Assembly: GCA_052386335.1 (NCBI GenBank) | Contig: JBQTKH010000105.1 | Coordinates: forward strand, 6,368-70,367 | Reading direction: 5' to 3' | Length of the DNA: 64,000 nucleotides | Origin: Microthrixaceae bacterium | GTDB lineage: Bacteria > Actinomycetota > Acidimicrobiia > Acidimicrobiales > VFJN01 | Part shown: positions 3,768 through 44,121 of the stretch, piece after piece | Numbering within the stretch: position 1 is the first letter of the stretch | Layout of the letters: the number at the start of each line of letters is the position of its first letter | Program-made: the position numbers and the translations under genes | Notes under the pieces: generated by a model | Told to the model about the DNA's origin: nothing | The model's input: the letters and a program-made list of their open reading frames with translations, nothing else | Databases searched by the model: none

Positions 3768-4901
3768 TCAGGCGGTGGATGGTTGGGCGACGAGGCTCTG
3801 CCCGAGTCGGAGGAGCGACGGGCTCGCGCCGCCCAGGGTGAGCTCGAGCACCTTGGCCCACCGGAAGTAGCGATGGATCGGGTAGTCCAGGTCCATGCCG
3901 ATGCCGCCGTGGAGGTGCTGGGCTGCGTGGACCACGCGCTGAGCGGCCTCGGCTGCCCAGTACTTGGCCACCATCAGCTCGTCCTGGGCATCGATGCCCT
4001 CACTGAGCCGCCAGGTCGCCTGCAGCGAGGTGAGCCGGATCCCCTCGGTGTCGATGTACGCATCGGCGACGCGGTGCCCGACAGCCTGGAAGGTGCCCAG
4101 CTTGGAGCCGAACTGCTCGCGAGTGTTGACGTAGCGAGCAGTGATCGCGAGGGCTTCCTCGCACACACCGGTCTGCATGGCGCAGGCCGCCGCGATCAAT
4201 CGGTCGGCGATCCAGGCGGTGATCGCGGCACCCTGCTCCGGTCCGCCGAGCCGGGCGTCGTCGGCACAGGTCACGCCGGCAAGCGCGAAGCTCCACTGAG
4301 GTTCGCCGCTCACCGCTTCCTCGCGGAACAGGGTGACCCCTGGCGCGTGGGGATCGACGAGGAACAGCGCCGAGGTGGTCTCGCCGGTTCGAGCAGGAAC
4401 GAGCACTGCCGTCGCCCGATCCGCGGCCACGACGAAGGCCTTCGTCCCGTCGAGTCGCCATGCCTCACCCGCGCGCGTGGCTTGGGTGGCGGGCACCGAG
4501 GGCGGCGTCACCTCGCCGGGCTCGTAGAGCGCGACGGTGAGCATGGCGGAGCCGTCGATCAGGCCCGGCAGGTGCTGGGCCCGCTGCGCGGGGGTGCCGA
4601 ACTCGGCGAGGGCCAGACCGGCGCCGACGATGACCGACAGATAGGGCACCGGCGCCACCCTGCGACCGAGCTGCTCGGCGATGAGGCAGGCCTCCATGAG
4701 CCCGTAGCCACCCCCGCCATCCGCTTCGGGCAGGCAGATGCCGAGCAGACCGGACTTGGCCAGCTCGGACCACACGTCGTCGTCGAACCAGGCGTCGCCG
4801 GCCTCGAGCTCGCGCAGTCGCTCCGGCGGGAGCATCTCCTGGAGGATCCGCTCGGCCAGGGAGCGGATCTCGCCCTGCGCTTCGCTGAGGGTGAAGTCCA
4901 T
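3768..4901 (-). CDS. acyl-CoA dehydrogenase family protein (possible non-catalytic partner subunit)
   Basis: Start taken at ATG 4901 (MDFTLSEAQGEIRSLAERIL...), 377 aa. The longer 541-aa ORF extension is Arg/Pro/Gly-rich and overlaps the upstream gene. ACAD-like throughout. No Glu visible at either usual catalytic-base position (WIADRLIAAA; LELTLGGAS). Confidence 0.85.
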   Translation of the reverse strand: MDFTLSEAQGEIRSLAERILQEMLPPERLRELEAGDAWFDDDVWSELAKSGLLGICLPEADGGGGYGLMEACLIAEQLGRRVAPVPYLSVIVGAGLALAEFGTPAQRAQHLPGLIDGSAMLTVALYEPGEVTPPSVPATQATRAGEAWRLDGTKAFVVAADRATAVLVPARTGETTSALFLVDPHAPGVTLFREEAVSGEPQWSFALAGVTCADDARLGGPEQGAAITAWIADRLIAAACAMQTGVCEEALAITARYVNTREQFGSKLGTFQAVGHRVADAYIDTEGIRLTSLQATWRLSEGIDAQDELMVAKYWAAEAAQRVVHAAQHLHGGIGMDLDYPIHRYFRWAKVLELTLGGASPSLLRLGQSLVAQPSTA

Positions 4902-21279: not shown

Positions 21280-22887
21280 TCAGCGAGACTGGCGCCGAGT
21301 CTCGGCCCGCCGCTCGGCCTCCAGGCGCTCGAGGGTGGGCTCCGGTGAGTGGTCCACGTGGCGCATCGCCTCGGCGACGGCCACATGGCCGGCCTGCTCG
21401 GCGATGAGCCGGTGCATGTCCTGGCCCACGATGCGGTACGCCGGATGGCCCTGCGGGGTCGTGCGCAGCTCCAGCATGTGCATGGCCTCGCGGGCGTTGA
21501 GGTGGAGGTAGAAGCGCACGCGGTAGGCGAGGGACACCGCGTAGGCCGCCTGGGCGGGGAAGCGCTCGACGAGGGCGTCGTGGAGATCGGCGGACCGCTC
21601 CATCGCCTCGTCGAAGCGGGCCGCGCAACCGGCCATCTCCACCGCCTCCGGACGGGTGAACCCATGGCGAGGGCTCAGCTGCTGCCACTCGATCGACAGC
21701 ATGCGGTGGCGCTGGAGGTCTCGGAACGCCCCGTAGTCGGCCAAGACGTCGAACCGGTAGGTGAGCCGCTCGAAGGCGCGCCCGGGCTTGTGACGCCGAT
21801 TCGCCCGATCACCGACGTACGCGCGAATCACCGACAGGCGCTCCTCGGTGGTCATCGCCCGCACCCGCTGGTCGAGCACTGCCTCGCTCAGGTGGGTGTG
21901 CGAGTAGAGGATGGCGGCGACCAGCTTCACCTCGCCGTCGGGATCCCAGTCGACCAGGGCCACCGACGGCGCTTCCGGGGTGGGGTCGACGGGGGGCACG
22001 AGCTGTTGGGCCAGCTCCTCCACGGCCGACCGGGTGCTGGCGAGGTACGTGCTCCAGGCAACGCCCCGGTCGTCGAGGTCGACCCGCTTGAGGAAGCTGG
22101 GGATGACCTTGCGCAGCTCCGTGAGCATCAGATCCGCATAGGCCCGGGCCTCCGGAAGCGGGTGCGACCGCATGCGCAGGAGCAGCGCCTCGTAGCCCTG
22201 ACCGGTGCCGTAGATCCCGACGTTGGAGAGCGACGCGGCCGGGAGCACGCCACGGACCGCGTCGAAGGCCTTGGCTCGGATGGCCTGGCGGTAGACGAAG
22301 TCGGAGTCGGCCGGGTCCTTCGGGAACTGCTCCCGGTAGAAGTCGGACATGATCGGCACGAGCTCGGCGTAGGAGTCGAACAGGCGGTCCATGTCGCCGA
22401 TGTAGCGGAGACCGAGACCCGAGCCCAGCACCTCAGGGTCGCGGAAGTAGCGGTAGCGCCCCCCGAGACGGGTGTCGTAGGCGATGTAGCGGGTGGACTG
22501 CTCGAGGTAGGCCATCAGCCGGCCCCACTCGAGGACCTTCGTGAGGAGGTTCGAGGCCTGCTCGCAGGCGAGGTGCACGCCGCCGAGCTGGGCGACGGAG
22601 TCGTCGCCGTACTCGAAGAACACCCGGTCGTAGAGCTCCTCTGCTCGACGCAGGCCCACCGTGGCATCGATCGTGGTGTCGCCGGTGATGTCGAGATCGC
22701 CGACGAACTCGTCCAGGAACAGGCGGCGCAGGCTCTTGGAGCTGCGGGAGTACCGGGCGAACAGCGCCCCCTTCACCACCTCGGGGAGGTTCACCAGGGC
22801 GAAGACCGGACCATCGAGGTTCGTGAAGTACCGGCGGAGGATGTCGGCCTCGTCGGCCGTGAACTCCTCGGCGATGTAGACGGTCAT
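21280..22887 (-). CDS. thyX: long ThyX-like FAD-dependent thymidylate synthase family protein
   Basis: 535-aa ORF. ThyX signature RHRMLS near the C-terminal third (FRDLQRHRMLSIEWQ). N-terminal ALFARYSRSSKSLRRLF. About twice the length of canonical ThyX. Confidence 0.7.
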   Translation of the reverse strand: MTVYIAEEFTADEADILRRYFTNLDGPVFALVNLPEVVKGALFARYSRSSKSLRRLFLDEFVGDLDITGDTTIDATVGLRRAEELYDRVFFEYGDDSVAQLGGVHLACEQASNLLTKVLEWGRLMAYLEQSTRYIAYDTRLGGRYRYFRDPEVLGSGLGLRYIGDMDRLFDSYAELVPIMSDFYREQFPKDPADSDFVYRQAIRAKAFDAVRGVLPAASLSNVGIYGTGQGYEALLLRMRSHPLPEARAYADLMLTELRKVIPSFLKRVDLDDRGVAWSTYLASTRSAVEELAQQLVPPVDPTPEAPSVALVDWDPDGEVKLVAAILYSHTHLSEAVLDQRVRAMTTEERLSVIRAYVGDRANRRHKPGRAFERLTYRFDVLADYGAFRDLQRHRMLSIEWQQLSPRHGFTRPEAVEMAGCAARFDEAMERSADLHDALVERFPAQAAYAVSLAYRVRFYLHLNAREAMHMLELRTTPQGHPAYRIVGQDMHRLIAEQAGHVAVAEAMRHVDHSPEPTLERLEAERRAETRRQSR

Positions 22888-22932
22888 CGGGCGATCCTGG
22901 GGCGAGTGGGGATCCAGATCGTACGCCCGGCC

Positions 22933-31668: not shown

Positions 31669-32634
31669 TCAACGGTAGCGGTCGAGGATGCGCGCAGCGG
31701 CGCGACCTCCGGCGCCTCGTAGCTCCGGTGGCGCGTCCACAACCTCCGCGTCCGGACCGAGGTTCACGAGGAGTCGCTCCAACCAGGGCTCCGCCGCGAT
31801 GGCCATGGTGACCAGCAGTGAGCCATCGGGCTGCGGGTCGACCTCCTCGACCGGGTAGGCCTCCGAGACCCACGCCGCTGCACTCGCGAGGCGCAGGACC
31901 ACCCGAGGGTCGTCGTCGTCAGGTTGGAACACCCCGACGCTGACGCCGTCGGGGGACGGCTCGAACTGATCATCGAGGAGCGTCGCGGCGAGGATGCGAT
32001 CCAGCCGGAAGCGGCGCTCCCCGCGTGCGAGGTGGCAGTACCCCAGCAGGTAGAGACTGCCGTCGGCGGCATGGACGAGGTACGGGTCGACGTCGCGCTC
32101 GGTGCGGGTGTCGCGGCCGTACGAGTAGTAGTCGAGGTGCACGCGCCGCCGCTCGCGCACGGCCGTGCGCACCACGTCGAGGATCTCGACCTGAGCGCCC
32201 CCCAGGTTGATGTCGAGCACCTGCGCCGCATCGACGCCGAGCACCGCCGCCAGCTTCGTGACACCGCGGGCCAGCGCGCTGTCGTGATCTGCGCCCGGCA
32301 GCGCGAGGACCGAGGCGCCGGCCGCCAGCAGCGCCACGGCCTGGTCGGGGGTGAGGCGCTGGGGGGTGGCGAACACGTCCGCGTAGTGGATCCACACGCG
32401 GTCGCCCTCCTGGACGACGTCGATCAGCGCGTCGGGCGTGTAGGGCGGCAGCCCGACCAGCCACACCACCTCGAGGTCGGCGGCGAGCTGGGTGGCGGTG
32501 ATGCCAAACCGGGCGCGCACCTCGTCGAGGGTTGGGCCGTCGTGTGCGGCGATCCACGGCACCATCGCGAGCAGCCGTTGGAGGCGCGCCCCCGAGGCCT
32601 GGTTGGCCGGCTTCACGACACCTGGTCCAACCAC
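31669..32634 (-). CDS. pafC: WYL-domain transcriptional regulator PafC
   Basis: ARLQRLLAMVPWIAAHDGPTLDEVRARFGIT (HTH) followed by a WYL-type domain. Second of the tandem pafBC pair. An alternative GTG start at 32616 forms a GTGA overlap with the pafB stop. Confidence 0.88.
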   Translation of the reverse strand: MVGPGVVKPANQASGARLQRLLAMVPWIAAHDGPTLDEVRARFGITATQLAADLEVVWLVGLPPYTPDALIDVVQEGDRVWIHYADVFATPQRLTPDQAVALLAAGASVLALPGADHDSALARGVTKLAAVLGVDAAQVLDINLGGAQVEILDVVRTAVRERRRVHLDYYSYGRDTRTERDVDPYLVHAADGSLYLLGYCHLARGERRFRLDRILAATLLDDQFEPSPDGVSVGVFQPDDDDPRVVLRLASAAAWVSEAYPVEEVDPQPDGSLLVTMAIAAEPWLERLLVNLGPDAEVVDAPPELRGAGGRAAARILDRYR

Positions 32635-33557
32635 GCGATGAGGTCGGCGCGCAGATCCGGCGGTTCCAGGAGCTCCGCGTGCTCGAGGAACGACAGCACG
32701 AACGAGCGGAGCGCCGCCCGGTTGGCCACCGGCAGCTCGATGACGACCACCGGATCGCTTCCGTCGGTCGGAACCTCCACCGAACGCACTTGGTCCGGGC
32801 CGACGTGTTGCATGGCCCAGCGCGCCTGTGGACCGTCGATGCGCACGAGCGCTTGCACCGGCTCCTCGCCGCCGAGCTCCCAGACGCCGCGGGCACGGCC
32901 GGGAACGGTGGTCTCAGGGGGCGAGAAGCTCGGGAGGTCGGTCGCGGCGACGCGGCCCTCGATGCGATCGAGCCGGTAGTTCCGCTCCTCGTCCCGCAGG
33001 TGGTCGTACCCGGTGAGATACCAGCGTCCCCGCTGGAACTCGAGGCGGTACGGGTCGATGGTGCGCTCCTGGTCGTGGTAGCGCAGCGCGACCGGCGTGC
33101 GGGAGGCAACCGCGCTGAAGAGCACCGCGAGGTTCGGATCCGACGGCAGTGGGGCAACGTGCACCCCGAGGTCGCCAGGGGCGGGGTCGCCCACCAGGCC
33201 GCCGAGCTTGAGCAGCCCTTCGGTGGCGGGGAGCCCCTCGACCTGCACCGCTGACGCGGCGAGGTGGAGAGCGGCCAGCTCGTCGGGCGCGAGCCCGGGA
33301 TCGCGCAGGGCGTACTCCTCGCGCGGGATCCGGTAGCCATCCACCGCCGGCATCGTGCCGGGCACCTTCTCCACCCGCAGCGGGATGCCCATCGATCTGA
33401 GCTCGTCCTTGTCGCGCTCGAAGGCGCGCCGGAAGGCCCCCTGCTCACGCGGGTAGGTCTCCAGCTGGGCCTGGATGACCTCGGCCGAGATCGGACGAGC
33501 GGTGTCGAGCAGGAGTGCGGTGAGGTTGAGCAGGCGCTCGAGCTTGACGGCCGACAT
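32613..33557 (-). CDS. pafB: WYL-domain transcriptional regulator PafB
   Basis: Start at ATG 33557 (MSAVKLERLLNLTALLLDTARPISAEVIQAQL...AFERDKDELRSMGIPL), 314 aa. The upstream part of the 412-aa ORF is a shadow. Confidence 0.88.
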   Translation of the reverse strand: MSAVKLERLLNLTALLLDTARPISAEVIQAQLETYPREQGAFRRAFERDKDELRSMGIPLRVEKVPGTMPAVDGYRIPREEYALRDPGLAPDELAALHLAASAVQVEGLPATEGLLKLGGLVGDPAPGDLGVHVAPLPSDPNLAVLFSAVASRTPVALRYHDQERTIDPYRLEFQRGRWYLTGYDHLRDEERNYRLDRIEGRVAATDLPSFSPPETTVPGRARGVWELGGEEPVQALVRIDGPQARWAMQHVGPDQVRSVEVPTDGSDPVVVIELPVANRAALRSFVLSFLEHAELLEPPDLRADLIAWLDQVS

Positions 33558-33567
33558 CGTCTGGACC

Positions 33568-34578
33568 CTACCGACCGACCGGGAGCACCTGGGCTGCGAG
33601 CGCGCCGGCGGCGCCTGCCGCCTCGAAGAAGAGCGGGTCGTCGTCCGGACCGCGACCCATCGTCGTGACCGTGAGCCCGGCATCGTGGAGCAGCATCGAC
33701 ATCGGCGGCGGGACCACCCGGCGAACATCGTGACGCTGGTCGGCGAACGCGCCGTCGGCGGGACTGGCAACGAGCACGCGCGAGCGCGCGAGCTCCAAGG
33801 CGGTGCGCGAGTGGTGGCTGACCCCTCGATGGCGATCGCGCTCGTCGGCACTGCTCATGCGGAGTGCGGCGATGGGCTGGCCCCCGAGCGCGGCGGCGGC
33901 ATCGAGGATGGCCGCCACCTCCACCGCGGTCGTGCCGAGCCGCGAGCCCGTTCCCACCACACCTGGGCCCATCGCCACGACGGTGACGTCGGCGCCGAGC
34001 ACGTGGCGGGCCAGCAGGAGCGCGGAGGGCACCGACACCGCCTCGAGGTCGCCACCGAAGGCGTGACCTGCGGTGACCGTGGCGGCCACGAGACCCGAGG
34101 CCTCCATGGCGAGCACCAGGTCGGACAGCGCCATCGGGAGGGCGGCGCCATCGGTCATCACGTAGACCACCCGCGCGGTGGGAACCGCGCCCACGACCGC
34201 GGCCGCGACGCACGGCACCTGGCTGTGGAGGCTGCACGCCACGACAGGCATGCCCCCGAGATCTTCGGGCAGGTCAGGATGGGATTCCTCTGCCGCGCCG
34301 GTGTCGACCTGGAGGCTCGTGTATCGCAGCTTCATGATGTGCCCTGGCCCCGGTTCGCTCCACGCGTCTCGTTCGAGGTTCCAGTGGACGACGTGCCAGC
34401 CCCCGGTGCCGAGCCCGAGCTCGACCGCTGTGGTGTTGAGCACCACGCGGTCGCCCACCGCCACAGGGCCGGTGAGGCCCGTGAGCACGTACGCGCGGCC
34501 GACATCGGTGGTGACGCGCTGGAGCCCCAGCCGCTCCACGAGCACCTCGGTGACCGTGCCGGTGCGATAACTGGGCAC
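33568..34578 (-). CDS. DUF3866-like protein
   Basis: 336-aa ORF with GTG start overlapping the pafA stop by 1 nt. Contains VLNTTAVELGLGTGGWHVVHWN. Assignment to DUF3866 is from memory of the family pattern, not a search. Confidence 0.7.
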   Translation of the reverse strand: MPSYRTGTVTEVLVERLGLQRVTTDVGRAYVLTGLTGPVAVGDRVVLNTTAVELGLGTGGWHVVHWNLERDAWSEPGPGHIMKLRYTSLQVDTGAAEESHPDLPEDLGGMPVVACSLHSQVPCVAAAVVGAVPTARVVYVMTDGAALPMALSDLVLAMEASGLVAATVTAGHAFGGDLEAVSVPSALLLARHVLGADVTVVAMGPGVVGTGSRLGTTAVEVAAILDAAAALGGQPIAALRMSSADERDRHRGVSHHSRTALELARSRVLVASPADGAFADQRHDVRRVVPPPMSMLLHDAGLTVTTMGRGPDDDPLFFEAAGAAGALAAQVLPVGR

Positions 34579-35936
34579 TAGAGCGAGGCGATGAGCTTCT
34601 CGACCCGTTCGTCACGGGAGCGGAACGGGTCCTTGCACAGCACGGTCCGCTGGGCCTGATCGTTGAGCTTCAGGTGGACCCAGTCGACCGTGTAGTCGCG
34701 CTTGCGCTCCTTGGCCCGCCGGATGAACTCGCCGCGCAGCCGAGCCCGAGTGGTCTGCGGGGGCGTCTCGACGGCTTCGTCGATGTCCGCGTCGGTGCAC
34801 GTGCGCTCGACGAGGCCGGCGTCTTGCATCTTGTAGAAGAGCCCGCGGTCGCGGCTGATGTCGTGGTACTGCAGGTCGATGAGGGCCACCTTCGGGTGGG
34901 TCAGTGCCAGATCGTGCTTAGCCCGGTAGCCCTCGATCAGCTTGTGCTTGATCACCCAGTCGCACTCGCGGTCGAGGTCCATCGGATCACGTTCGATCGT
35001 GGACACGCAGTGCTCCCACATGCCGAGCGCCTGCTTCTCGAGCGGGCTCACGCCCTTGCTCTCGGCGTACTTGAGCGCCTTCGCGAGGTACTCGCTCTGG
35101 ATGTCGAGTGCCGACAGCTCACGGCCATTGGCGAGGCGCACCTTGCGCCGGCAGGTCGTGTCGTGGCTGATCTCACGGATGGCCCGGATCGGGTTCTCGA
35201 GCGTGAGGTCGCGGAGCACCTGACTCGGGTCCTCGAGCATCCGCAGCAGGATCGAGGTCGCCCCCACCTTGAGGAAGGTGGCGTACTCGCTCATGTTCGA
35301 GTCACCCACGATCACATGCAGGCGCCGGTATCGCTCGGCGTCGGCATGGGGCTCGTCCCGGGTGTTGATGATCGGGCGGCTCCGCGTCGTGGCGGAGCTC
35401 ACGCCCTCCCAGATGTGCTCGGCCCGCTGCGAGATGCAGTACATCGCGCCGCGCGCGGTCTGCAGCACCTTGCCAGCTCCCGCGTAGATCTGGCGCGACA
35501 CGAAGAACGGGATGAGCACCTCGGCGTAGTGGCCGAAGGCGTCGCGCCGAGAGGTGAGGGCGTTCTCGTGCCAGCCCTAGCTGTTGCCCGCGGAGTCGGT
35601 GTTGTTCTTGAAGAGGTAGATGACGCCGCGAATCCCCTCTTCGCGGAGGCGCTGCTCCGCCGAACCGAGCAGCTGCTCGAGGATCCGCTCCCCCGCCTTG
35701 TCGTGGGTGACGAGATCGAGGATGGAGTCGCACTCGGGGGTGGCGTACTCGGGGTGGGAGCCCACATCGAGGTAGAGGCGAGCGCCGTTGGCGAGGAACA
35801 CGTTGCTGCTCCGCCCCCAGGACACCACGCGACGGAAGAGGTAGCGCGCCACCTCGTCGGGGCTCAGGCGGCGTTGGCCCCGAAGCGTGCACGTGACTCC
35901 GTACTCGTTCTCGAGTCCGAAGATCCGCCGCTCCAT
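34578..35936 (-). pseudogene. pafA: Pup ligase PafA interrupted by one in-frame TAG (codon 120 of 452)
   Basis: [16 protein letters not shown]...[53 protein letters not shown]...[29 protein letters not shown]. Both pieces (35577..35993 and 34578..35519 in the ORF track) are in the same frame. Total length of 452 codons equals mycobacterial PafA as I recall it. The stop at 35577-35579 replaces the Tyr of the motif I recall as invariant, YGCHENY. Confidence 0.85.
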
Positions 35937-36029: not shown

Positions 36030-37436
36030 TCAGGGGACGAGTGCCGCGCTGAGCGCTCCCACAGGTCTGGCCGTCAGAGCGGGATCGCCAGAGGAGGCGA
36101 GCCGGCAGAACTGTCGTTCACCTTCCGCAAGCGGGTTCACCGCACTGAGGTTGGCAAGCCATGACTGGTCGATCGCCTCGACTGACGGAATGAGGTCGGG
36201 CGAAGGGCTGAATTTCAGGATGTCGATGCCCCGCTGGTAGTCGATCGTGTAGATGTACTCATCGTCTATCCAGTGGGCGGCCGAGGCGGAGCCGACGCCG
36301 GGCTGCCACCAGCCGAGCTGGCTGATCACGCCGGTGGCTCCATCGACCTTGAGGATGCGGGTGCCGTGCTCATACCACGCCCCCGCGACGATCTGGTCGT
36401 TCCCCTCCGTGCGCGACGTGAACCAGTGCCCCGAGCAACCCAGCTCGTTCACGGCCGGATCGCCGTTGGTGTAGGAGCCGCTCACCGGACGAAGCACATC
36501 GGCAACGGTCATCATGGTTCCCTTCGTGACGTTGACGGCCTTCCAGGTCGCGAACGGTCCGGAGCCCGAGTTGCACACGCCAGAGAAGTTGGTCTCGCCG
36601 TTACCCAGCACGAGCTCGCCGGGGCGGAGGGGGTAGTTGGTTCCCTCAGCCTCAGACCGCTCGATGTACTCGTCAGCGCGAGGACGCAGGTTGTTGTGCT
36701 GGTAGGCGGTCTTGTAGGTCCCGTGCTGGGCGGTGCTCGAGGTGGCGATCCTCCGCGGTGCTAGTGGGTTGGAGATGTCGGCGAACACCATCGGACGAGT
36801 GTCGGTCATGGCATAGCCAGCAGCATCGATGTTCACGTTGTGACCAGGGCCCACGAAGAGCTGCGAGGTCCAGGTCGTGGAGAGGAACACGGGGTTGGCC
36901 TTGTCACGCAGGTCGAGGATCTCGCCATCCGAGCCCCACACGACATCACAAGCAGGATCCATGCAGTCAGCGATGTGGCCGGCCGCCCGGAACGGCACGG
37001 TGGACTTCAGAACCGGGAGCGTGGGATCGGAAACGTCGATCACGTGCACGTAGAAGATGTTCATGAACTCGGTCATCAGGGCCGTCTTGCCGTCGGCCGA
37101 GACCGTGATGTCCTCGTTCTCCCAGTTCGGCATCGGAAGATGACTGAGCAGCAGGGGCTCAGCGGGGCTGCTGAGGTCGTAGATCGAGAGCCCCGGTACA
37201 CCGGACACGTACATGAGGCGACGGCCCTGATCGTCGGTGCGGAGATGGGCGCCCACACCTGGCGAATCGAGGGGGATGGTGCCCACGTAGTCCACGTTGG
37301 GCGATGCGAACCCCGGGTTCACCGGTAGATCCACCAACGGCACCGGCACCCCCTGGTGCAGGTCGGCATTGGCCGGGTTGACCATCGCGATCAACCCGAT
37401 GACGGCAATTAGCGCAATTGTCCTGGTTCGCACCAC
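36030..37436 (-). CDS. secreted LVIVD-repeat beta-propeller protein
   Basis: 468-aa ORF. Signal peptide (MVRTRTIALIAVIGLIAMVNPANA). Repeated LxxxDxSxPxxP units (LSIYDLSSPAEP, YVHVIDVSDPTLP, MVFADISNPLAP). Visibly lower GC than the neighbours. Confidence 0.8.
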   Translation of the reverse strand: MVRTRTIALIAVIGLIAMVNPANADLHQGVPVPLVDLPVNPGFASPNVDYVGTIPLDSPGVGAHLRTDDQGRRLMYVSGVPGLSIYDLSSPAEPLLLSHLPMPNWENEDITVSADGKTALMTEFMNIFYVHVIDVSDPTLPVLKSTVPFRAAGHIADCMDPACDVVWGSDGEILDLRDKANPVFLSTTWTSQLFVGPGHNVNIDAAGYAMTDTRPMVFADISNPLAPRRIATSSTAQHGTYKTAYQHNNLRPRADEYIERSEAEGTNYPLRPGELVLGNGETNFSGVCNSGSGPFATWKAVNVTKGTMMTVADVLRPVSGSYTNGDPAVNELGCSGHWFTSRTEGNDQIVAGAWYEHGTRILKVDGATGVISQLGWWQPGVGSASAAHWIDDEYIYTIDYQRGIDILKFSPSPDLIPSVEAIDQSWLANLSAVNPLAEGERQFCRLASSGDPALTARPVGALSAALVP

Positions 37437-37491: not shown

Positions 37492-38175
37492 TCAGCCGGC
37501 GGGCAACAGCGTGGTCAGCTCGGCATCCTCCACGCGGCGGAAGGCTCTGCGCCCGTTGCTGCGGGACAGCACTGCCACCTCGAGCTCTTCCGGCGCGATC
37601 ACACGATCCGGCCCCGCCAGCGCCGACACGGCCGCGTTGAGGGCCCCACCGAGATCGAGATCTGGCTGGAAGAGCTCATCCAGTCGTGAGCCGATGGCCT
37701 CGGCGTCGCCGCCGATCACGCTGAAGCGGTCCTCGTCCACGACGGAGCCGTCGTAGACGATGTGGAAGATCTGATCGTCGCTCGAGGCGGCGCCGACCTC
37801 GGCGACGAGGATCTCCACCTCCATCGGCTTCATCTCATGCGTGAAGATCTGGCCGAGCATCTGGGCGTAGGCATTGGCCAGGCTGCGAGCGTCGACGTCC
37901 TCCCGGCTGTAGCTGTAGCCCTTGAGATCGGCGTGACGCACACCAGCGATGCGGAGCTGGTCGAACTCGTTGTACTTGCCGACGCCCGCGAAGGCGATGC
38001 GGTCGTAGATCTCGCTGACCTTGTGCAAGGTGCCTGACGTGTTCTCGGCCGCGATCAGGATGCCGTCGGCGTAGAGGATGGCTGCCGCGCTGCGACCCCG
38101 GGCGATGCCCTTGCGGGCGTAGTCGGCCCGGTCCTTCATCACCTGCTCGGGTGCGACGTAGAAGGGCATGCTCAT
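37492..38175 (-). CDS. prcA: 20S proteasome alpha subunit
   Basis: 227-aa ORF. MSMPFYVAPEQVMKDRADYARKGIARGRS... is the typical bacterial PrcA N-terminus. ATGA overlap with prcB. Confidence 0.95.
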   Translation of the reverse strand: MSMPFYVAPEQVMKDRADYARKGIARGRSAAAILYADGILIAAENTSGTLHKVSEIYDRIAFAGVGKYNEFDQLRIAGVRHADLKGYSYSREDVDARSLANAYAQMLGQIFTHEMKPMEVEILVAEVGAASSDDQIFHIVYDGSVVDEDRFSVIGGDAEAIGSRLDELFQPDLDLGGALNAAVSALAGPDRVIAPEELEVAVLSRSNGRRAFRRVEDAELTTLLPAG

Positions 38176-38954
38176 CGTGCATCACCTCTCTCGACGAGCG
38201 CCTCGACACGCGTGCGGAGCTCGTCGTCGTCGACCCTCGTGTAGCCCTCGGCGGTGATCGTGGCGACGACGGGGAAGATGCCACGGATGAGGTCGGGACC
38301 GCCGGTGGCGGAGTCGGCGTCGGCCGCTTGGTACAGCGCGTTCACGACCAGGTCGATTGCTTCGTTCCGACTGAGGCCATCTCGGAAGCCGAGCTTCACG
38401 ACGGTGCCGGCATGGAGGCTGCCGGAGCCCGATGCGATGTGGTCGAGCTCCTCGTAGCGTCCGCCGGTGACGTCATAGCTGAAGAGCCGTCCGACCTGTC
38501 GCCGGAGGTCGAAGCCGGCGAACAGCGGAACCACGGCCATGCCCTGCATCGCGGCGGGCAGGTGGCCGCGCACCATCGTGCTGAGCTGGTTGGCCTTGCC
38601 CTCCAGGCTCAGGACCTGGCCCTCGACCTTCTCGTAGTGCTCGAGCTGGAGCTGGAAGAGCTTCACCATCTCGACAGCGGGGCCGGCGGCCCCAGCGATC
38701 GCGACGCCACTGAAGCGGTCGGCCGGGAACACCTTCTCCATCGTCTTGTGGGCGATGAGGTTGCCAGCGGTGGCGCGACGATCGCCGGCCATCACCACGC
38801 CATCGGCGTACTTCACACCCAGCACCGTGGTGCCGTGGGTGATCGTCAGCGGCGGCGTTCCCTCCGGGAGTGCCGTCTGTGGGCGCACCCGAGCGAGGAG
38901 CTCTGCGAACGAGGGACCGGGATCGTCGGAGGCCGAGAAGATCGGAAGGGTCAT
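38172..38954 (-). CDS. prcB: 20S proteasome beta subunit (with propeptide)
   Basis: 260-aa ORF. Propeptide followed by the catalytic Thr context ITHG-TTVLGVKYADGVVMAGDRRAT. Confidence 0.95.
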   Translation of the reverse strand: MTLPIFSASDDPGPSFAELLARVRPQTALPEGTPPLTITHGTTVLGVKYADGVVMAGDRRATAGNLIAHKTMEKVFPADRFSGVAIAGAAGPAVEMVKLFQLQLEHYEKVEGQVLSLEGKANQLSTMVRGHLPAAMQGMAVVPLFAGFDLRRQVGRLFSYDVTGGRYEELDHIASGSGSLHAGTVVKLGFRDGLSRNEAIDLVVNALYQAADADSATGGPDLIRGIFPVVATITAEGYTRVDDDELRTRVEALVERGDAR

Positions 38955-39527: not shown

Positions 39528-40070
39528 CTACAGCGCTGCCGCGACGACGTGAAGCCGTGCTCCCATCCAGCGGTAGGGGTCGTGCCGGCCGGCAAGGTCC
39601 TCGGCATCGAGCAGCAGCGCGAGCTCCCCGTCGTCAGGGACGACCGTGTCAGCCGGGATCGCATCGTTGAAGATCCGCACGAGGAGCCCGTGGGCGCACA
39701 CCACGTCGAAGCGGCGCTGCGGGAGCAGCTCGTCGAGGTCCTCGATCCGGCCTTCGATGAGCTCGACATCGAGGCCAGCGGTGGACGCGCCCGAGGCGAA
39801 GCAGTCGAGCAGCTCCGGGGACGGGTCGACGCCCGTGACGTGACAGCCGTGGGAGGCCAACCGCAAGGCCTGGGTGCCCTGCCCACAGCCGACGTCGAGC
39901 ACGCTCATGCCAGGACTGACGTGGTCAGCGAGCTGGCGACCGATCACTTCCTGCCGAATCACGTTGCGCAGCTTGTCCAGGCCCTCGATCCAACGTTGCT
40001 CGCCAACACCGAACCCGCTCACCTCGCCATCCTCCTCCACGACCGGGGCAGGTCGTGCCGGCCAGGTCAC
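39528..40070 (-). CDS. class I SAM-dependent methyltransferase (short)
   Basis: 180-aa ORF with motif I VLDVGCGQGTQALRLA and motif-II-like FDVVCAHGLL. GTGA overlap with the upstream endonuclease VII gene. No DPPY/NPPY-type DNA-MTase motif. Confidence 0.75.
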   Translation of the reverse strand: MTWPARPAPVVEEDGEVSGFGVGEQRWIEGLDKLRNVIRQEVIGRQLADHVSPGMSVLDVGCGQGTQALRLASHGCHVTGVDPSPELLDCFASGASTAGLDVELIEGRIEDLDELLPQRRFDVVCAHGLLVRIFNDAIPADTVVPDDGELALLLDAEDLAGRHDPYRWMGARLHVVAAAL

Positions 40071-40570
40071 GCAGCGCTGCGTTGGCGGAGGTACACGATC
40101 GCACGCAGCAACATCGCGGGGTCGTCGCGGAACTGGCCGAGGCCCCTGTTGCAGCTCAGGCAGAGCAGGCCCCGCAGGTGGCCGTGCTCGTGGTCGTGGT
40201 CGACGTGCATCGACGCGAGCCGCTCGGGCTTCTCACCACAGATCGCGCACCCACCGTTCTGCGCCTCGAGCATCTCATCGACCTCGTCAGCAGAGATCCC
40301 GTACGTCCGTCGGTAGTACATGTCGCGCTGCTTGCGCTTGATCTCCGGTCGCGCGTTGCCATCGCGTCGGTAGTCCCTCATGCGGTCCGGATTCTCACCC
40401 TGCCAGCGCCGAACCATGCCGATGTACTTGCCGGGGTCAGCGGCGTAGCGCTCGCGCTTGGCGGCCTGGTTGCAGGCCTTGCACTCGCTGCGATATCCGT
40501 CTCGCATGCCCTTGGCCCGATAGAACTCGTCGAGTGACTTCGTCTGCTGGCAGCTTGAGCACACCTTCAT
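40067..40570 (-). CDS. endonuclease VII (recombination endonuclease, HNH-like) domain protein
   Basis: 167-aa ORF. N-terminal Cys-rich CSSCQQTKSLDEF...ECKACN. C-terminal CAICG...HVDHDHEHGHLRGLLCLSCNRGLGQFRDD, the phage T4 endo VII-type signature. Lower GC than the flanks. Confidence 0.85.
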   Translation of the reverse strand: MKVCSSCQQTKSLDEFYRAKGMRDGYRSECKACNQAAKRERYAADPGKYIGMVRRWQGENPDRMRDYRRDGNARPEIKRKQRDMYYRRTYGISADEVDEMLEAQNGGCAICGEKPERLASMHVDHDHEHGHLRGLLCLSCNRGLGQFRDDPAMLLRAIVYLRQRSAA

Positions 40571-40615: not shown

Positions 40616-40810
40616 CTACTGTCCACCCTTCTGAACATAGGATTTAACAAAATCCTCTGCGTTCGACTCGAGGACCTCGTCGATGTCGTCGAGGATGTCG
40701 TCGAGCTCGGCCTTGATCTTCTCGCCTTGCTCGGACTTCGCGGGGACGTCCTCGACGACCTCGTCGGTCTTGGCGGGGGCTTGCTTCTTCTTCTGCTCAC
40801 GTTCGGCCAT
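40616..40810 (-). CDS. pup: prokaryotic ubiquitin-like protein Pup (C-terminal GGQ)
   Basis: 64-aa ORF: [23 protein letters not shown]...[29 protein letters not shown]. Lies 15 nt downstream of dop. Confidence 0.95.
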
Positions 40811-40825: not shown

Positions 40826-42337
40826 CTATTGCCCCAGCTTCTGGAGCAGATCGGCGGCGCTCTCGCACTCGTCGATGAGGCTACCCACATGGGCCTTGGT
40901 TCCACGCAAGGGCTCCATCATCGGCACCCGGCGCAACGGGTCGCCGCCCACGTCGAACACGAGGGAGTCCCAGTTGGCGGCGACGATGCTCTCGGGCCAT
41001 CGCTGCAGGCAACGACCCCGGAAGAAGGCCCGCGTGTCGGGCGGGGGCTCGGTGACCGCGAGCGCGATCTCCTCGTCGGTGCAGATGCGCTCGAGCCCCA
41101 CGCGCGCGGCGAGCGACTTCGACGGACGCAGGTCGTGGTACTGGATGCACATCGCGGCAAGACGCGCGTCGTCCCAGCGCAGGTCGTGGCGGGCGCGGTA
41201 GCCGTCGATGACGCGGTGCTTGGCCACCCAGTCGACCTGGTCGGCGACCCGGCCCGGATCGGTCTCGAGGGCGGTGAGGACCTCCTCCCAGCGCCGCAGC
41301 ACCTCCTCCCCCACGTCCGCCCCGCCGACGCACTCGAGGCCTCGCTCGTCCGCGAACTTCCGAGCCCGGCCGTGCAGCTCCCACTGGGCGTCGAGCGCCG
41401 TGATCGACGAGCCGTCGGCGAGCTCGATCGGACGGGCGAGGGTGAGGTCGTAGGAGACCTGACGCAGCGCCTGGACCGGCCGCGCCGGGAGCAGGTCGCG
41501 GGTGAGCCAGTCGTCCTCGATCATCGACAGGACGAGGGCAGTGGTGCCCACCTTCAAGAACGTGGCCACCTCGGACAGGTTCGCGTCGCCGACGATGACG
41601 TGGAGGCGTCGGTACTTCTGCGGGTCGGCGTGCGGCTCGTCGCGCGTGTTGACGATCGGGCGCTTGAGCGTGGTCTCGAGGCCGACCTCCTCCTCGAAGA
41701 AGTCAGCCCGCTGCGTGAGCTGGAACGGCACATCGGCGCTCGTGAGACCGGCCGCCTCGGTGCCCACCTTGCCCGCGCCGGTGTAGATCTGCCGCGTGAT
41801 GAAGTGCGGCATCACGTGGGACACGATCGTCGAGAACGGCACCTGGCGGTCCATCAGGTAGTTCTCGTGGCACCCGTAGCTGTTGCCCTTGCGATCCGAG
41901 TTGTTCTTGTAGACCACGATCTCCTGACCCGCAGGCAGGAGCGCGGTGGCCGCGTCCATCGAACGCTGCAGGATCACCTCGGCGGCCCGGTCGTAGACGA
42001 CGATCGATCGCGGATCGGCGCACTCGGGCGTGGACAGCTCGGGATGCGCGTGGTCGACGTAGTACCGAGCGCCGTTGGTGAGGACCGCGTTGACGAGGTG
42101 CGTCTCGACCTCGGGCGGCATCGCGCCCGCAGCGCTGAAGCCGCGGGCGTCGTTGCCCGGCTGCTCGTCCTCGAAGTCCCAGCCGATGCGCGACGACCCC
42201 GTGGCCGAGCCCGCGCGGGCCAGCTCCTGGACGTAGGCGTTGATCAAGACGGACGAGGCCGCGATCGGGTTCGAGTCGCCGCCACGGATGACGATGCCGT
42301 ACTCCGTCTCGATGCCGAGCACCTTGGGGATCGCCAT
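40826..42337 (-). CDS. dop: Pup deamidase/depupylase Dop
   Basis: Start at ATG 42337 (MAIPKVLGIETEYGIVIRG...), 503 aa. Intact GNSYGCHENYLM motif and a Dop-type loop insertion. The 822-aa ORF extension is a shadow over arc. Confidence 0.93.
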   Translation of the reverse strand: MAIPKVLGIETEYGIVIRGGDSNPIAASSVLINAYVQELARAGSATGSSRIGWDFEDEQPGNDARGFSAAGAMPPEVETHLVNAVLTNGARYYVDHAHPELSTPECADPRSIVVYDRAAEVILQRSMDAATALLPAGQEIVVYKNNSDRKGNSYGCHENYLMDRQVPFSTIVSHVMPHFITRQIYTGAGKVGTEAAGLTSADVPFQLTQRADFFEEEVGLETTLKRPIVNTRDEPHADPQKYRRLHVIVGDANLSEVATFLKVGTTALVLSMIEDDWLTRDLLPARPVQALRQVSYDLTLARPIELADGSSITALDAQWELHGRARKFADERGLECVGGADVGEEVLRRWEEVLTALETDPGRVADQVDWVAKHRVIDGYRARHDLRWDDARLAAMCIQYHDLRPSKSLAARVGLERICTDEEIALAVTEPPPDTRAFFRGRCLQRWPESIVAANWDSLVFDVGGDPLRRVPMMEPLRGTKAHVGSLIDECESAADLLQKLGQ

Positions 42338-42351
42338 CTCGCGTGCCGGCC

Positions 42352-44121
42352 TCAGAGGTACTGGCCGGTGGCGACCCGCTCGATGGAGCGACCACCGCGG
42401 GGCTCGGCATCGCTGGTGTGCTGGACGATCGTGCGCACGTAGACGATCCGCTCGCCCTTCTTGCCGGAGATCTTGGCCCAGTCGTCGGGGTTGGTGGTGT
42501 TGGGGAGGTCTTCGTGCTCCTTGTACTCCTGGTGGATCGACTCGATGAGGTCGTCCACCTGGATCCCCTTGGTGCCACCGTCGAGCAGGCGCTTGATGGC
42601 CAGCTTCTTCGCCCGCCGCACGATGTTCTCGATCATGGCCCCGGACGAGAAGTCCTTGAAGTACATGATCTCCTTGTCGCCGTTCTGGTAGGTGACCTCG
42701 AGGAACTGGTTCGCCTCGTCGGTGCGGTACATCTCCGCGGCGGTGGTCTCGATCATCGCCTGGACGGCCTTCTCGCGGTCGCCTCCGCCGAGGCTGGTCA
42801 CCTCGGCCTCGTCGAGGGGGAGGTCGGCGGTGAGGTAGCGGGCGAAGATCTGCGCGGCAGCCTGCTCGGTGGGGCGCTCGATCTTGATCTTCACGTCGAG
42901 GCGACCAGGCCGCAGGATGGCGGGATCGATGAGGTCTTCGCGGTTGGACGCGCCGATCACGATGACGTTCTTGAGCGACTCGACGCCGACGATCTCGACG
43001 AGGAGCTGCGGCACGATCGTGCTCTCCATGTCGGAGCTGATGCCCGTGCCGCGGGTGCGGAACATGGAGTCCATCTCGTCGAAGAAGATGATGACCGGCC
43101 AGCCCTCTTCGGACTTCTCCCGGGCCCGCTGGAACACCAGACGGATCTGGCGCTCGGTCTCGCCGACGTACTTGTTGAGCAGCTCGGGGCCCTTGATGTT
43201 GAAGAAGTACGACCGAGCGGTGTCGCCGGTAACCGCCGCGACCTTCTTGGCCAGGCTGTTGGCGACGGCCTTCGCGATGAGCGTCTTCCCACAACCCGGG
43301 GGGCCGTAGAGGAGGATGCCCTTGGGTGCCGGCAGCTTGTGCTCCAGGAACAGCTCCTGGTGCAGGAACGGCAGCTCGACCGCGTCGGCGATCTGCTCGA
43401 TCTGCTCGTCGAGGCCGCCGATGTCCTCGTAGTCGATGTCGGGCACCTCCTCGAGAGCGAGGTCCTCGACCTCGGGCCGAGGCAGCTTCTCGAGCACGAG
43501 ACCCGAGCGCGGGTCGAGCAGAAGGGTGTCGCCGTTGCGGAGCTTCGTGTCATGGAGCTCGTCGATCAGCTCCACCACGCGCTCCTCGTCGGCACGCCCG
43601 ACGATGAGCACGCGGTTGCCGTCGAGGCGCTCCTTCATCGAGACGACCTCACCCGTGAGGTCGGCCCCCCGCGACAGGACGACGTTCAGCGACTCGTTGA
43701 GCACCACCTCGTCGCCGCGGCGCAGCGGGTCGTCACCCAGCTCGGGGTGCACCGCCACCCGCACCTTGCGACCGCCGGTGAACACGTCGACGGTGCCGTC
43801 GTCGTTGCTCCCGAGCAGCGTGCCGTAGGCCGACGGCGGCTGCGTGAGCTTGTCGACCTCCTCGCGGAGCGCGGCGATGTGGTCACGCGCTTCCCGGAGG
43901 GTGTAGGTGAGCTTCTCGTTCTGGGACACGGCCTGCGAGAGCTGGCCCTTGGTCTCGAGGAGGCGCTCCTCGAGGGTGCGGACGCGCTTGGGCGCGTCCT
44001 GCAAGCGCCGACGAAGGGAGATGACCTCTTCCTCGAGCTCGAGGGTGCGCGCCGCGTCGGTCGCGTCCGCCTCGCTCGCCGGCGCTGACGCCTGATCGTC
44101 CGACTCCGTGACGGGGACCAC
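42352..44121 (-). CDS. arc: proteasome-associated AAA+ ATPase ARC/Mpa
   Basis: N-terminal coiled coil, OB domains, Walker A GPPGCGKT, Walker B IIFFDEMD, and the C-terminal docking motif ...ATGQYL. GTG 44121 is proposed as the start. The ORF is open to ATG 44175, so the start is uncertain. Confidence 0.93.

Follow-up and report, generated by a model that had tools for sequence, protein, structure and literature searches.

Clustered changes around an in-frame amber codon in pafA of a Microthrixaceae bacterium look more like a local assembly or sequencing error than recent gene loss or stop-codon recoding

The literature presents PafA (NCBIfam TIGR03686, Pfam PF03136) as the only ligase for Pup (PMC7947786; PMC5952411). 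Its conserved GNSYGCHENY strand has been assigned roles in the groove for the Pup C-terminus and, through its His residue, in metal binding (PMC5952411, PMC8599861), and D57N is cited as an inactivating PafA mutant (PMC5952411). With regard to sequencing, clustered, reproducible and context-dependent Illumina miscalls have been described, with a frequency of about one per 500 bp in genomes of 65-68% GC (PMC3141275), and sites of such miscalls also produce graph branching (Nakamura et al. 2011, PMC3141275).

The locus described here lies in a 64,000-nt stretch (hereafter the window) of contig JBQTKH010000105.1, from a metagenome-assembled genome (MAG) of a Microthrixaceae bacterium. It resembles canonical PafA in its equivalog score, in its 97% identity and in sharing an operon with arc, dop, pup, prcBA and pafBC, but it differs in a frame broken at codon 120, in the changes C122W, Y126A and D133A, and in lacking a deposited product. 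Taken together, the sequence comparisons suggest that the stop and its three neighbours are most likely no property of the living organism, and that a local assembly or sequencing error accounts for the pattern better than a very recent mutation or a new decoding of the stop codon.

The pafA gene and the Pup-proteasome cluster

The disrupted pafA gene (Pup--protein ligase; 34578..35936, minus strand) is a conceptual frame of 452 codons that runs from ATG at 35936 to its own TAG terminator (34578-34580), with TAG at codon 120 (35577..35579) as the sole interruption. Re-reading of the sequence thus confirms the in-frame amber codon reported in the first-pass annotation. Translated with X at the stop, the frame scores 682 bits against the TIGR03686 PafA equivalog (cut-off 551) and 398 bits against the TIGR03688 Dop model, which is below the cut-off of 492. 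The translation and the equivalog score also bear out the earlier description of pafA as otherwise PafA-like and held in one frame of 452 codons. The translation is 97% identical to full-length PafA proteins and colinear from end to end with PDB 4B0T/4BJR. The N-terminal catalytic residues E9, E11 and D57 (M. tuberculosis numbering) are retained, and GLENEYG is present. Around the stop, the minus strand reads AAG AAC AAC ACC GAC TCC GCG GGC AAC AGC TAG GGC TGG CAC GAG AAC GCC CTC, so the conserved strand GNSYGCHENY appears as GNS*GWHENA, and the uninterrupted frame of ~450 codons that characterizes PafA is broken at this point.

The deposited protein numbering, under locus tags ACT452_*, passes from MGQ0432885.1 to MGQ0432886.1, skipping pafA, and the source record has no PafA product; the gene was therefore handled as a pseudogene by the depositors. 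The translatable N-terminal fragment of 119 aa (MERRIFG...AGNS; 35577..35936, minus strand) keeps E9, E11 and D57 and is without the remainder of the active-site sheet. An identical 119-aa product is recorded in three other contigs. Downstream of the stop, an ORF of 313 aa is predicted from an internal GTG start (34578..35519, minus strand); it lacks the N-terminal catalytic residues, and its product has no exact match in the contig index or among deposited proteins.

The gene is located within the Pup-proteasome gene cluster, as expected for PafA. The order arc-dop-pup-(two inserted genes)-prcB-prcA-(one inserted gene)-pafA-DUF3866-pafB-pafC matches that of the related locus L103, and the downstream order DUF3866-pafB-pafC is found in L083, L085 and L103. 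All these genes of the window are on the minus strand. The proteasome ATPase gene arc/mpa (42352..44109, start approximate) is full length and passes the TIGR03689 cut-off with 764 bits. The depupylase/deamidase gene dop (40826..42337; MGQ0432893.1) is intact, with 563 bits against the TIGR03688 cut-off of 492 and the wild-type segment GNSYGCHENYLM. The pup gene (40616..40810; MGQ0432892.1) encodes 64 aa ending in QKGGQ, followed by TAG, and passes its NCBIfam cut-off. Both 20S genes, prcB (38172-38954; MGQ0432888.1) and prcA (37492-38175; MGQ0432887.1), are intact and pass their NCBIfam equivalog cut-offs. Downstream of pafA, DUF3866 (33568-34578) has a Pfam match and a GTG start that overlaps the pafA stop, while pafB (ORF 32613-33851, probably starting further inside) and pafC (31669-32634) carry the expected Pfam domains. 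Exact copies of PrcA and Pup of the window were not found in the contig index.

The Dop segment and the GGQ end of Pup are therefore present as annotated at first pass. The broader statement that the rest of the Pup system is intact holds for dop, pup, prcB and prcA, all full length, and for the pafB and pafC domains, with one qualification in arc, where a private D374V (42988-42990) affects the AAA+ EIDG motif at a column invariant in ~60 relatives.

Clustering of the altered codons and comparison with relatives

In total, four codons and five bases of pafA are altered, spread over 39 nt. Codon 120, TAC or TAT (Tyr) in relatives, is TAG, with G as the next base. By comparison with relatives, codon 122 (35571..35573, minus strand) has changed from TGC (Cys) to TGG (Trp), the new G being absent at that position in 16 relatives. 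At codon 126 (35559..35561, minus strand) two adjacent bases have changed, TAC (Tyr) to GCC (Ala), and at codon 133 (35538..35540, minus strand) GAC (Asp) has become GCC (Ala). The replacements of Cys by Trp and of Tyr by Ala had been listed beside the stop before and both are confirmed; D133A had been missed, so that count was incomplete.

These four are the only private amino-acid changes in pafA, all inside 14 of its 452 codons and none elsewhere, whereas pafA genes of close relatives have 0-1 each. Such clustering far exceeds chance. A hand calculation, 4 x (14/452)^3, gives a probability of ~1e-4, in agreement with the earlier remark that so many hits in a short motif are unusual for random decay. 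In 88 loci, three of the four changes strike columns with a conservation of 97% or more. Across these 88 loci and 118 homologues, Y120 and Y126 never vary and C122 is kept in 95% or more, and the ~225 other invariant columns contain no private change. The comparison of dN/dS in the two halves, proposed at first pass, gave 0.00-0.06 both before and after the stop. Codons 1-119 have values of 0.00-0.015 and codons 134-452 of 0.024-0.064, with pairwise dS at ~0.5-0.7. A genuine pseudogene is expected to have dN/dS moving towards 1 and scattered changes; in pafA there is constraint on both sides and the changes are clustered. One local artefact or one complex event is favoured, because independent decay would scatter changes.

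The wild-type segment GNSYGCHENYL was read in 118 close homologues and ~90 genomic loci, as well as in C. glutamicum PafA (PDB 4B0T/4BJR), so the motif NSYGCHENYL, given for mycobacterial PafA at first pass, is indeed the PafA norm. The alignment with orthologues of relatives, which had also been advised, shows TAC or TAT at codon 120 everywhere save in contig L091. This 716-nt soil contig from an independent project (ERR1051325) has two base changes in common with pafA of the window, at nt 360 (C>G) and nt 377 (A>C), which are positions 503 and 520 of the contig. Its codon 120 is accordingly TAG instead of TAC, and its codon 126 has changed from TAC to TCC (Ser), sharing the second-position A>C with the window. 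Contig L091 is 92-93% identical to L083, L084 and L089, as against 89.6% to the window, and is therefore not a sister of the window lineage. All three of these relatives have a normal TAC at codon 120, with the wild-type motif in L083 and L084 and the end of the contig at codon 119 in L089. A recombined patch common to the window and L091 was ruled out, since synonymous sites within the patch differ.

Among the matches listed, the closest pafA relatives reach ~89% DNA identity at most, and the best genome locus, L001, reaches 88%. The closest lineage found is L104, with 95% identity in DUF3866, in which pafA is limited to its final 34 codons.

The exact mutant motif had zero matches in a first metagenome scan. 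A broader scan through 241 million JGI metagenome records disclosed no stop at this codon in PafA or Dop genes; its hits were due to chance or came from distant homologues in which Trp occurs naturally. In no clade was the amber codon found to be conserved, the window and L091 being isolated tips, and no excess of odd variants at this motif was seen among GTDB genome loci. In the 118 best full-length homologues, the only radical singletons of the N-terminal half are G121C and L127C; together with C122S, they lie in one and the same 21-mer block as the changes described above. In addition, contig-cut N-terminal PafA fragments gather at 112-127 aa (7 of 15; p ~0.02-0.05, post hoc and weakly significant), and two contigs terminate exactly at codon 119/120.

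The shared sequence block as a possible source of error

The most widely shared 21-mer block of pafA comprises coding nt 357-382 (35555..35580, minus strand) and holds four of the five aberrant bases. Exact 21-mers of this block occur in 44 of 104 loci, which places it in the top 1.5% of gene positions, and both changes of L091 fall inside it too. Compared with dop, 33 nt are nearly identical, with one mismatch. Highly shared k-mer blocks include neither the remaining change, D133A at nt 398, nor D374V of arc.

Based on this distribution, we lean towards a local artefact as the probable source of the stop and its neighbours, originating in the reads or their assembly and not in the cell. The block, near-exact in dop and in pafA of many co-occurring Acidimicrobiia, would act as an inter-genome repeat in the assembly graph. 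At such a repeat, assembly paths may become tangled and contigs would often end. A path built from erroneous or very rare reads, sharing no k-mers with the tangle, could then be the only unambiguous route and enter the contig. In the organism itself, PafA would then be normal and the Pup-proteasome system functional. In this genome, the inferred wild-type pafA and dop share exact identity over only 15 and 17 nt, under the usual assembler k, and therefore any tangle would have to stem from other genomes in the sample. The source contig, 86.8 kb long, is typical of a short-read MAG, and the surrounding region is clean, with the other genes of the system full length.

In the first-pass annotation an error had been discounted on the grounds that it would not by itself explain the neighbouring substitutions. 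This argument is not upheld: clustering within 39 nt, recurrence in L091 and the shared 21-mer block all point the opposite way.

The changes share with published Illumina error clusters (PMC3141275) the grouping of substitutions, reproducible positions, high GC and a nearby inverted repeat, in this case of 7 bp (35520-35526 / 35545-35551). Moreover, two changes recur in the independent data set of L091, and contigs end at the same spot. They differ from those clusters in that the GGC trigger is not enriched and in that the repeat is 7 bp long, compared with >8 bp used in PMC3141275. GGC is present within 10 nt upstream, in either direction, at two of the five altered sites, against a base rate of 0.28. 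That no transitions occur is of little weight, since transversions make up ~60% of the natural differences in pafA. Arguments for Illumina error from the GGC trigger and from transition/transversion counts were consequently set aside as uninformative, with no enrichment over the base rate.

If the artefact is real, the DNA blocks most conserved across genomes would be the least trustworthy spots of metagenome assemblies, and a "pseudogene" in such a block, even in a long and clean contig, would not be evidence of pathway loss. The MAG should in that case be credited with a full Pup-proteasome system.

Gene loss, a second copy and recoding as alternatives

A genuine recent loss of the Pup ligase is a serious but less probable explanation. 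Here a single complex event, for example an error-prone repair patch, would have occurred in the dominant population, cutting PafA at residue 119 and abolishing pupylation, with decay yet to reach dop, pup, arc and the 20S genes. Early termination could also reduce expression of the translationally coupled DUF3866-pafBC. Consistent with such a loss, the altered bases belong to the consensus deposited for a contig as long as 86.8 kb, the depositors' annotation has no PafA product, and the specific tests of Illumina error models were unsupportive. The private, non-conservative D374V in arc would agree with a pathway at the start of its decay. Many actinobacteria, besides, tolerate the loss of the Pup-proteasome system.

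The position and number of the changes argue against it. Pseudogene changes are expected gene-wide, and here all are within 14 codons, with dN/dS of at most 0.06 in both halves; one hit suffices to inactivate the gene, so that four would need a special mechanism. Identical changes at two positions in the non-sister L091 are not expected from independent mutation, and placement in the most widely shared k-mer block is left without explanation. The search for such a mechanism yielded neither a donor sequence nor a quasi-palindromic template. A templated mutation was rejected, as mutant k-mers of at least 13 nt occur nowhere else in the window and hairpin energies are barely apart (-17.7 vs -16.4 kcal/mol). 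A new 5-bp complementarity, AGGGC/GCCCT, needs edits on both arms, unlike a single template switch. Gene conversion from dop was rejected as well, given that dop has the wild-type bases and the changes take pafA further from it.

The very recent inactivation suggested at first pass is less likely than an artefact and, if real, must be extremely recent, because constraint is unrelaxed on both sides of the stop and there is no other private change in the gene. By a hand estimate, a real inactivation would date to about the last 2% of the terminal branch. The locus is comparable to routine internal-stop pseudogenes of MAGs in having a single in-frame stop in an orthologous gene that is skipped in protein numbering; unlike them, it has no scattered decay, its changes are confined to 39 nt, with two found again in an unrelated assembly. 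If the loss is real, the organism would have been caught very shortly after losing its only Pup ligase, at a stage when Pup, Dop, the ATPase and the 20S proteasome are all still encoded, and would be a modest but clean natural case of pathway decay starting at the ligase.

A second intact pafA elsewhere in the genome, making the copy in the window a redundant pseudogene, is very improbable: the disrupted gene occupies the canonical position prcA - pafA - DUF3866 - pafBC, as in all relatives, its constraint is not relaxed, and related loci of ~20 kb each show one pafA and one dop.

Still less credible is a programmed decoding, in which read-through, a suppressor tRNA or a non-standard amino acid at the amber codon would still allow full-length PafA to be made, perhaps under regulation. 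The locus has in common with amber read-through and pyrrolysine recoding an in-frame TAG within a conserved, otherwise open frame. The frame beyond TAG is highly conserved, and TAG at the same Tyr codon is combined with a small residue 126 (Ala in the window, Ser in L091) in two unrelated lineages. That this combination arose twice in Acidimicrobiales, either as programmed decoding, by suppression or with a non-standard amino acid in the Pup-binding groove of the ligase, or as a biological hotspot of mutation by which some of the population reversibly turns pupylation off, appears very far-fetched, and any wide interest of the locus is limited to this unlikely recoding, if true. The stop is conserved in no clade and had no PafA or Dop match in the JGI records, and the window contains no tRNA gene, Rfam family, Pyl or other recoding gene, or relevant Pfam domain. 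Furthermore, C122W, Y126A and D133A strike residues that are invariant or nearly so in the strand for Pup and metal binding (PMC5952411, PMC8599861), and a read-through product would probably be inactive because these three are destroyed as well. The read-through or suppression considered at first pass is also contradicted by the use of TAG as a normal terminator. This codon ends 9 of the 41 confident genes in the window, including dop, pafA and pup, the last of which encodes a protein whose chemistry requires an exact GGQ C-terminus.

The interrupted pafA frame and its gene cluster

On the minus strand, pafA extends from an ATG at 35936 to a TAG terminator at 34578-34580, a frame of 452 codons which in translation shows a single interruption, the in-frame TAG of codon 120 (35579..35577). 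Against the NCBIfam equivalog TIGR03686, which has a cut-off of 551 bits, the conceptual product reaches 682 bits; with the Dop model it falls short, at 398 bits where 492 are required. Its alignment with C. glutamicum PafA (4B0T/4BJR) runs from one end to the other, and many full-length PafA proteins of 452 aa from Acidimicrobiales share 97% identity with it. By these comparisons the product is PafA, and the single PafA-like frame of about 450 codons described in the first-pass annotation is confirmed. The motif segment reads AGNSYGCHENYLTSRRDDFGHY in the full-length Acidimicrobiales proteins and in C. glutamicum PafA. The window departs from it, and all three changes noticed there previously (TAG, Cys to Trp and Tyr to Ala) are real; to these a fourth altered residue, D133A, is added. 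On the coding strand, numbered from the ATG, there are five base changes within 39 nt: C>G at nt 360, C>G at 366, T>G at 376, A>C at 377, and A>C at 398.

Genes of the cluster are arranged on the minus strand as arc (42352-44109), dop (40826-42337, MGQ0432893.1), pup (40616-40810, MGQ0432892.1), a gene with a recombination endonuclease VII domain (40067-40570), a SAM-dependent methyltransferase gene (39528-40070), prcB (MGQ0432888.1), prcA (MGQ0432887.1), a 468-aa ORF (36030-37436) without Pfam domains, pafA, the DUF3866 gene (MGQ0432885.1), pafB and pafC. The product of the ORF is 100% identical to MGQ0432886.1 (ACT452_10845, hypothetical protein). All genes but pafA are full length, and those of the system exceed curated cut-offs. 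As had been read, Pup ends in GGQ and Dop carries the wild-type motif. The accompanying statement that dop, arc, prcB, prcA and pafBC are intact stands with regard to length and cut-offs, but arc, the gene of the proteasome ATPase Arc/Mpa, carries a private non-conservative change, D374V, in EIDG. Its codon 374 (42988-42990) is GTC for Val, while Asp occupies this position of the AAA+ motif QLLxEIDG in all of about 60 relatives; no other private change of this kind at an invariant column was found in the cluster outside pafA.

In the deposited record, which includes the stop in its sequence, pafA falls between the proteins MGQ0432885.1 and MGQ0432886.1 and has no PafA product. This numbering suggests that the depositors treated it as a pseudogene.

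The endonuclease VII and methyltransferase genes (39528-40570) are inserted between pup and prcB, unlike in most relatives, and the 468-aa ORF parts prcA from pafA, which in most relatives are about 25 nt apart. Homologues of the ORF are widespread in Actinomycetota, a few of them with PF08309 (LVIVD repeat). Both insertions recur in the farmland scaffold L103 (endonuclease and methyltransferase genes at 458-1460, the ORF in the same place), whose PafA is intact and keeps the wild-type motif. L103 represents a different species, 88.8% identical in pafA and about 80% overall; the closest pafA sequences among the matches listed reach about 89% DNA identity. Much closer is contig L104, with a DUF3866 gene 95% identical, and it covers just the last 34 pafA codons. 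The DUF3866 gene begins at a GTG that shares bases with the pafA terminator (cTAGTG), and in all close relatives (L083, L085, L103) it is flanked by pafA and pafB. The overlap and the kept position suggest translational coupling of the two genes and point to DUF3866 as a conserved, uncharacterised operon member. Elsewhere in the window, a 550-codon stop-to-stop frame (21280-22932, minus strand) has two ThyX (Thy1) domain matches and may encode a flavin-dependent thymidylate synthase with tandem or duplicated domains.

Clustering of the changes and a second contig with the same stop

Compared with nine relatives, the four altered residues are the only private amino-acid changes of the window PafA, close relatives having 0-1 each. 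Among 228 columns conserved at ≥97% across 88 loci, the window differs at three, all inside seven codons, and by hand calculation four changes would land within a span of 14 of the 452 codons with a chance of about 1e-4. The packing had been called unusual for random decay, and rightly so: decay would scatter changes and not pile them up beside the stop. dN/dS of the two halves, proposed earlier as a check, is low both before the stop (codons 1-119, 0.00-0.015) and after the cluster (codons 134-452, 0.024-0.064), where pairwise dS is about 0.5-0.7, and gives no sign of decay. Outside the cluster pafA is under strong constraint on either side of the stop. Private changes at the remaining ~225 invariant columns are zero, so that a real inactivation would be confined to roughly the last 2% of the terminal branch (hand estimate).

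The 119-aa N-terminal PafA product of the window has exact matches in three contigs. Two of them, L089 (end at 4358) and L090 (end at 1073), come from different projects and stop exactly at codon 119/120, which could stem from looking up the exact product or could reflect assemblies breaking at the conserved block there. The remaining one, L091 (716 nt, from soil project PRJEB10725; ENA ERZ923669, run ERR1051325), has an internal TAG at codon 120, and its motif reads GNS*GCHENSL (Y126S). Two of its private bases are non-synonymous, and both match changes in the window, C>G (nt 360) and A>C (nt 377). L091 is 92-93% identical to L083, L084 and L089, all with the normal TAC at codon 120 (where L089 ends), and 89.6% identical to the window; judged by these values, it is not the window's sister lineage. 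A recombined patch common to both is ruled out by the synonymous sites of the patch, at which L091 and the window disagree (AGC/TCC, CTC/CTG, ACC/ACG, TCT/AGC). Consequently, the two identical changes arose twice, and such a double appearance needs a deterministic cause.

A proposed local consensus error in a widely shared block

We consider it somewhat probable that the pafA changes are a local consensus error in a MAG, ordinary in kind. Sequence-specific Illumina errors form clusters, are reproducible across experiments, are frequent in high-GC genomes and cause branching of assembly graphs (PMC3141275). The window fits these general features, but not the specific trigger, as two of the five sites have GGC within 10 nt upstream, the base rate being 0.28. 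The lack of transitions is uninformative, since about 60% of natural pafA differences are transversions.

For each 21-mer of the reverted pafA, we counted how many of the 104 fetched loci hold an exact copy. Coding nt 357-382 (35580-35555) form the sharing maximum of the whole gene (44 loci, top 1.5% of positions), and this block holds four of the five aberrant window bases and both of L091's. Location in a widely shared block is what an inter-genome repeat predicts, and the prediction held. In metagenome assembly graphs the block would act as such a repeat, at which contigs would either break or thread through rare or miscalled reads whose path lacks the k-mers of the tangle. That assembly produced the changes is an inference from this location. 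PafA contig-end fragments bunch at lengths 112-127, a weak post hoc signal (p about 0.02-0.05) that would fit such breakage. Counting against a complete explanation by artefact, the nt 398 change and arc D374V lie outside widely shared blocks.

Among 118 full-length homologues, the few radical singletons of the N-terminal half, G121C and L127C (CTC>TGC), also fall into the block at coding nt 357-382, as does C122S; these rare variants of GNSYGCHENYL occur in otherwise conserved metagenome PafA (L081 (P0001), P0010, P0061). In L084 (8412-12088; ENA ERZ25039456 contig_4827, 1.3 Mb), prcA and pafA are fused in one 695-aa ORF, and dop and arc are cut to 158 and 420 aa. The contig has the look of a long-read assembly riddled with indels, and illustrates how often Pup-proteasome genes of MAGs appear broken for technical reasons. 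The PafA homologue P0004 (ENA, 553 aa, 72.5-kb contig) has an exact internal tandem duplication of ~100 residues (PEEKQSLDMWEH...PPQTTRA twice), which is either real or an artefact of repeat assembly.

Less likely readings: recent mutation, a second ligase and read-through

A very recent complex inactivating mutation of pafA, likewise ordinary in kind, is a possibility we hold tentatively. The aberrant bases stand in the consensus of a long (86,791-nt) contig, and a second early lesion may be seen in arc D374V; however, no mechanism is evident, and the independent recurrence in L091 has no explanation under mutation. In a template search, no mutant k-mer of at least 13 nt recurs within the window. 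The recurring wild-type k-mers are those of dop, and as the changes take pafA further from it, dop is ruled out as their template. Hairpin stability is nearly unchanged by the mutations. That pafA is a redundant pseudogene, with a second ligase elsewhere in the genome, is very unlikely.

Read-through of the amber codon with PafA still being made is hardly to be expected. General amber suppression would lengthen Pup past the GGQ end required by its chemistry, and TAG ends 9 of 41 confident genes in the window, including pup, dop and pafA itself. A search of the 64-kb window for tRNAs, Rfam families, recoding-related domains and reverse-transcriptase domains found none. Conserved recoding would be expected to mark a clade, but a codon-degenerate scan of JGI metagenomes for TAG, TAA, TGA or TGG at codon 120 in the context GNSxG[C/W]HEN found a stop there in no PafA or Dop gene; it matched six places by chance, none of them in a coding context, and five distant members of the Pup-ligase family in which the Trp is natural. 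The PafA strand beside Ser119, lining the groove for the C-terminus of Pup (PMC5952411), also contains a His that corresponds to a Mg ligand of Dop (PMC8599861). The three substitutions fall on this strand, and a read-through PafA would probably be inactive.
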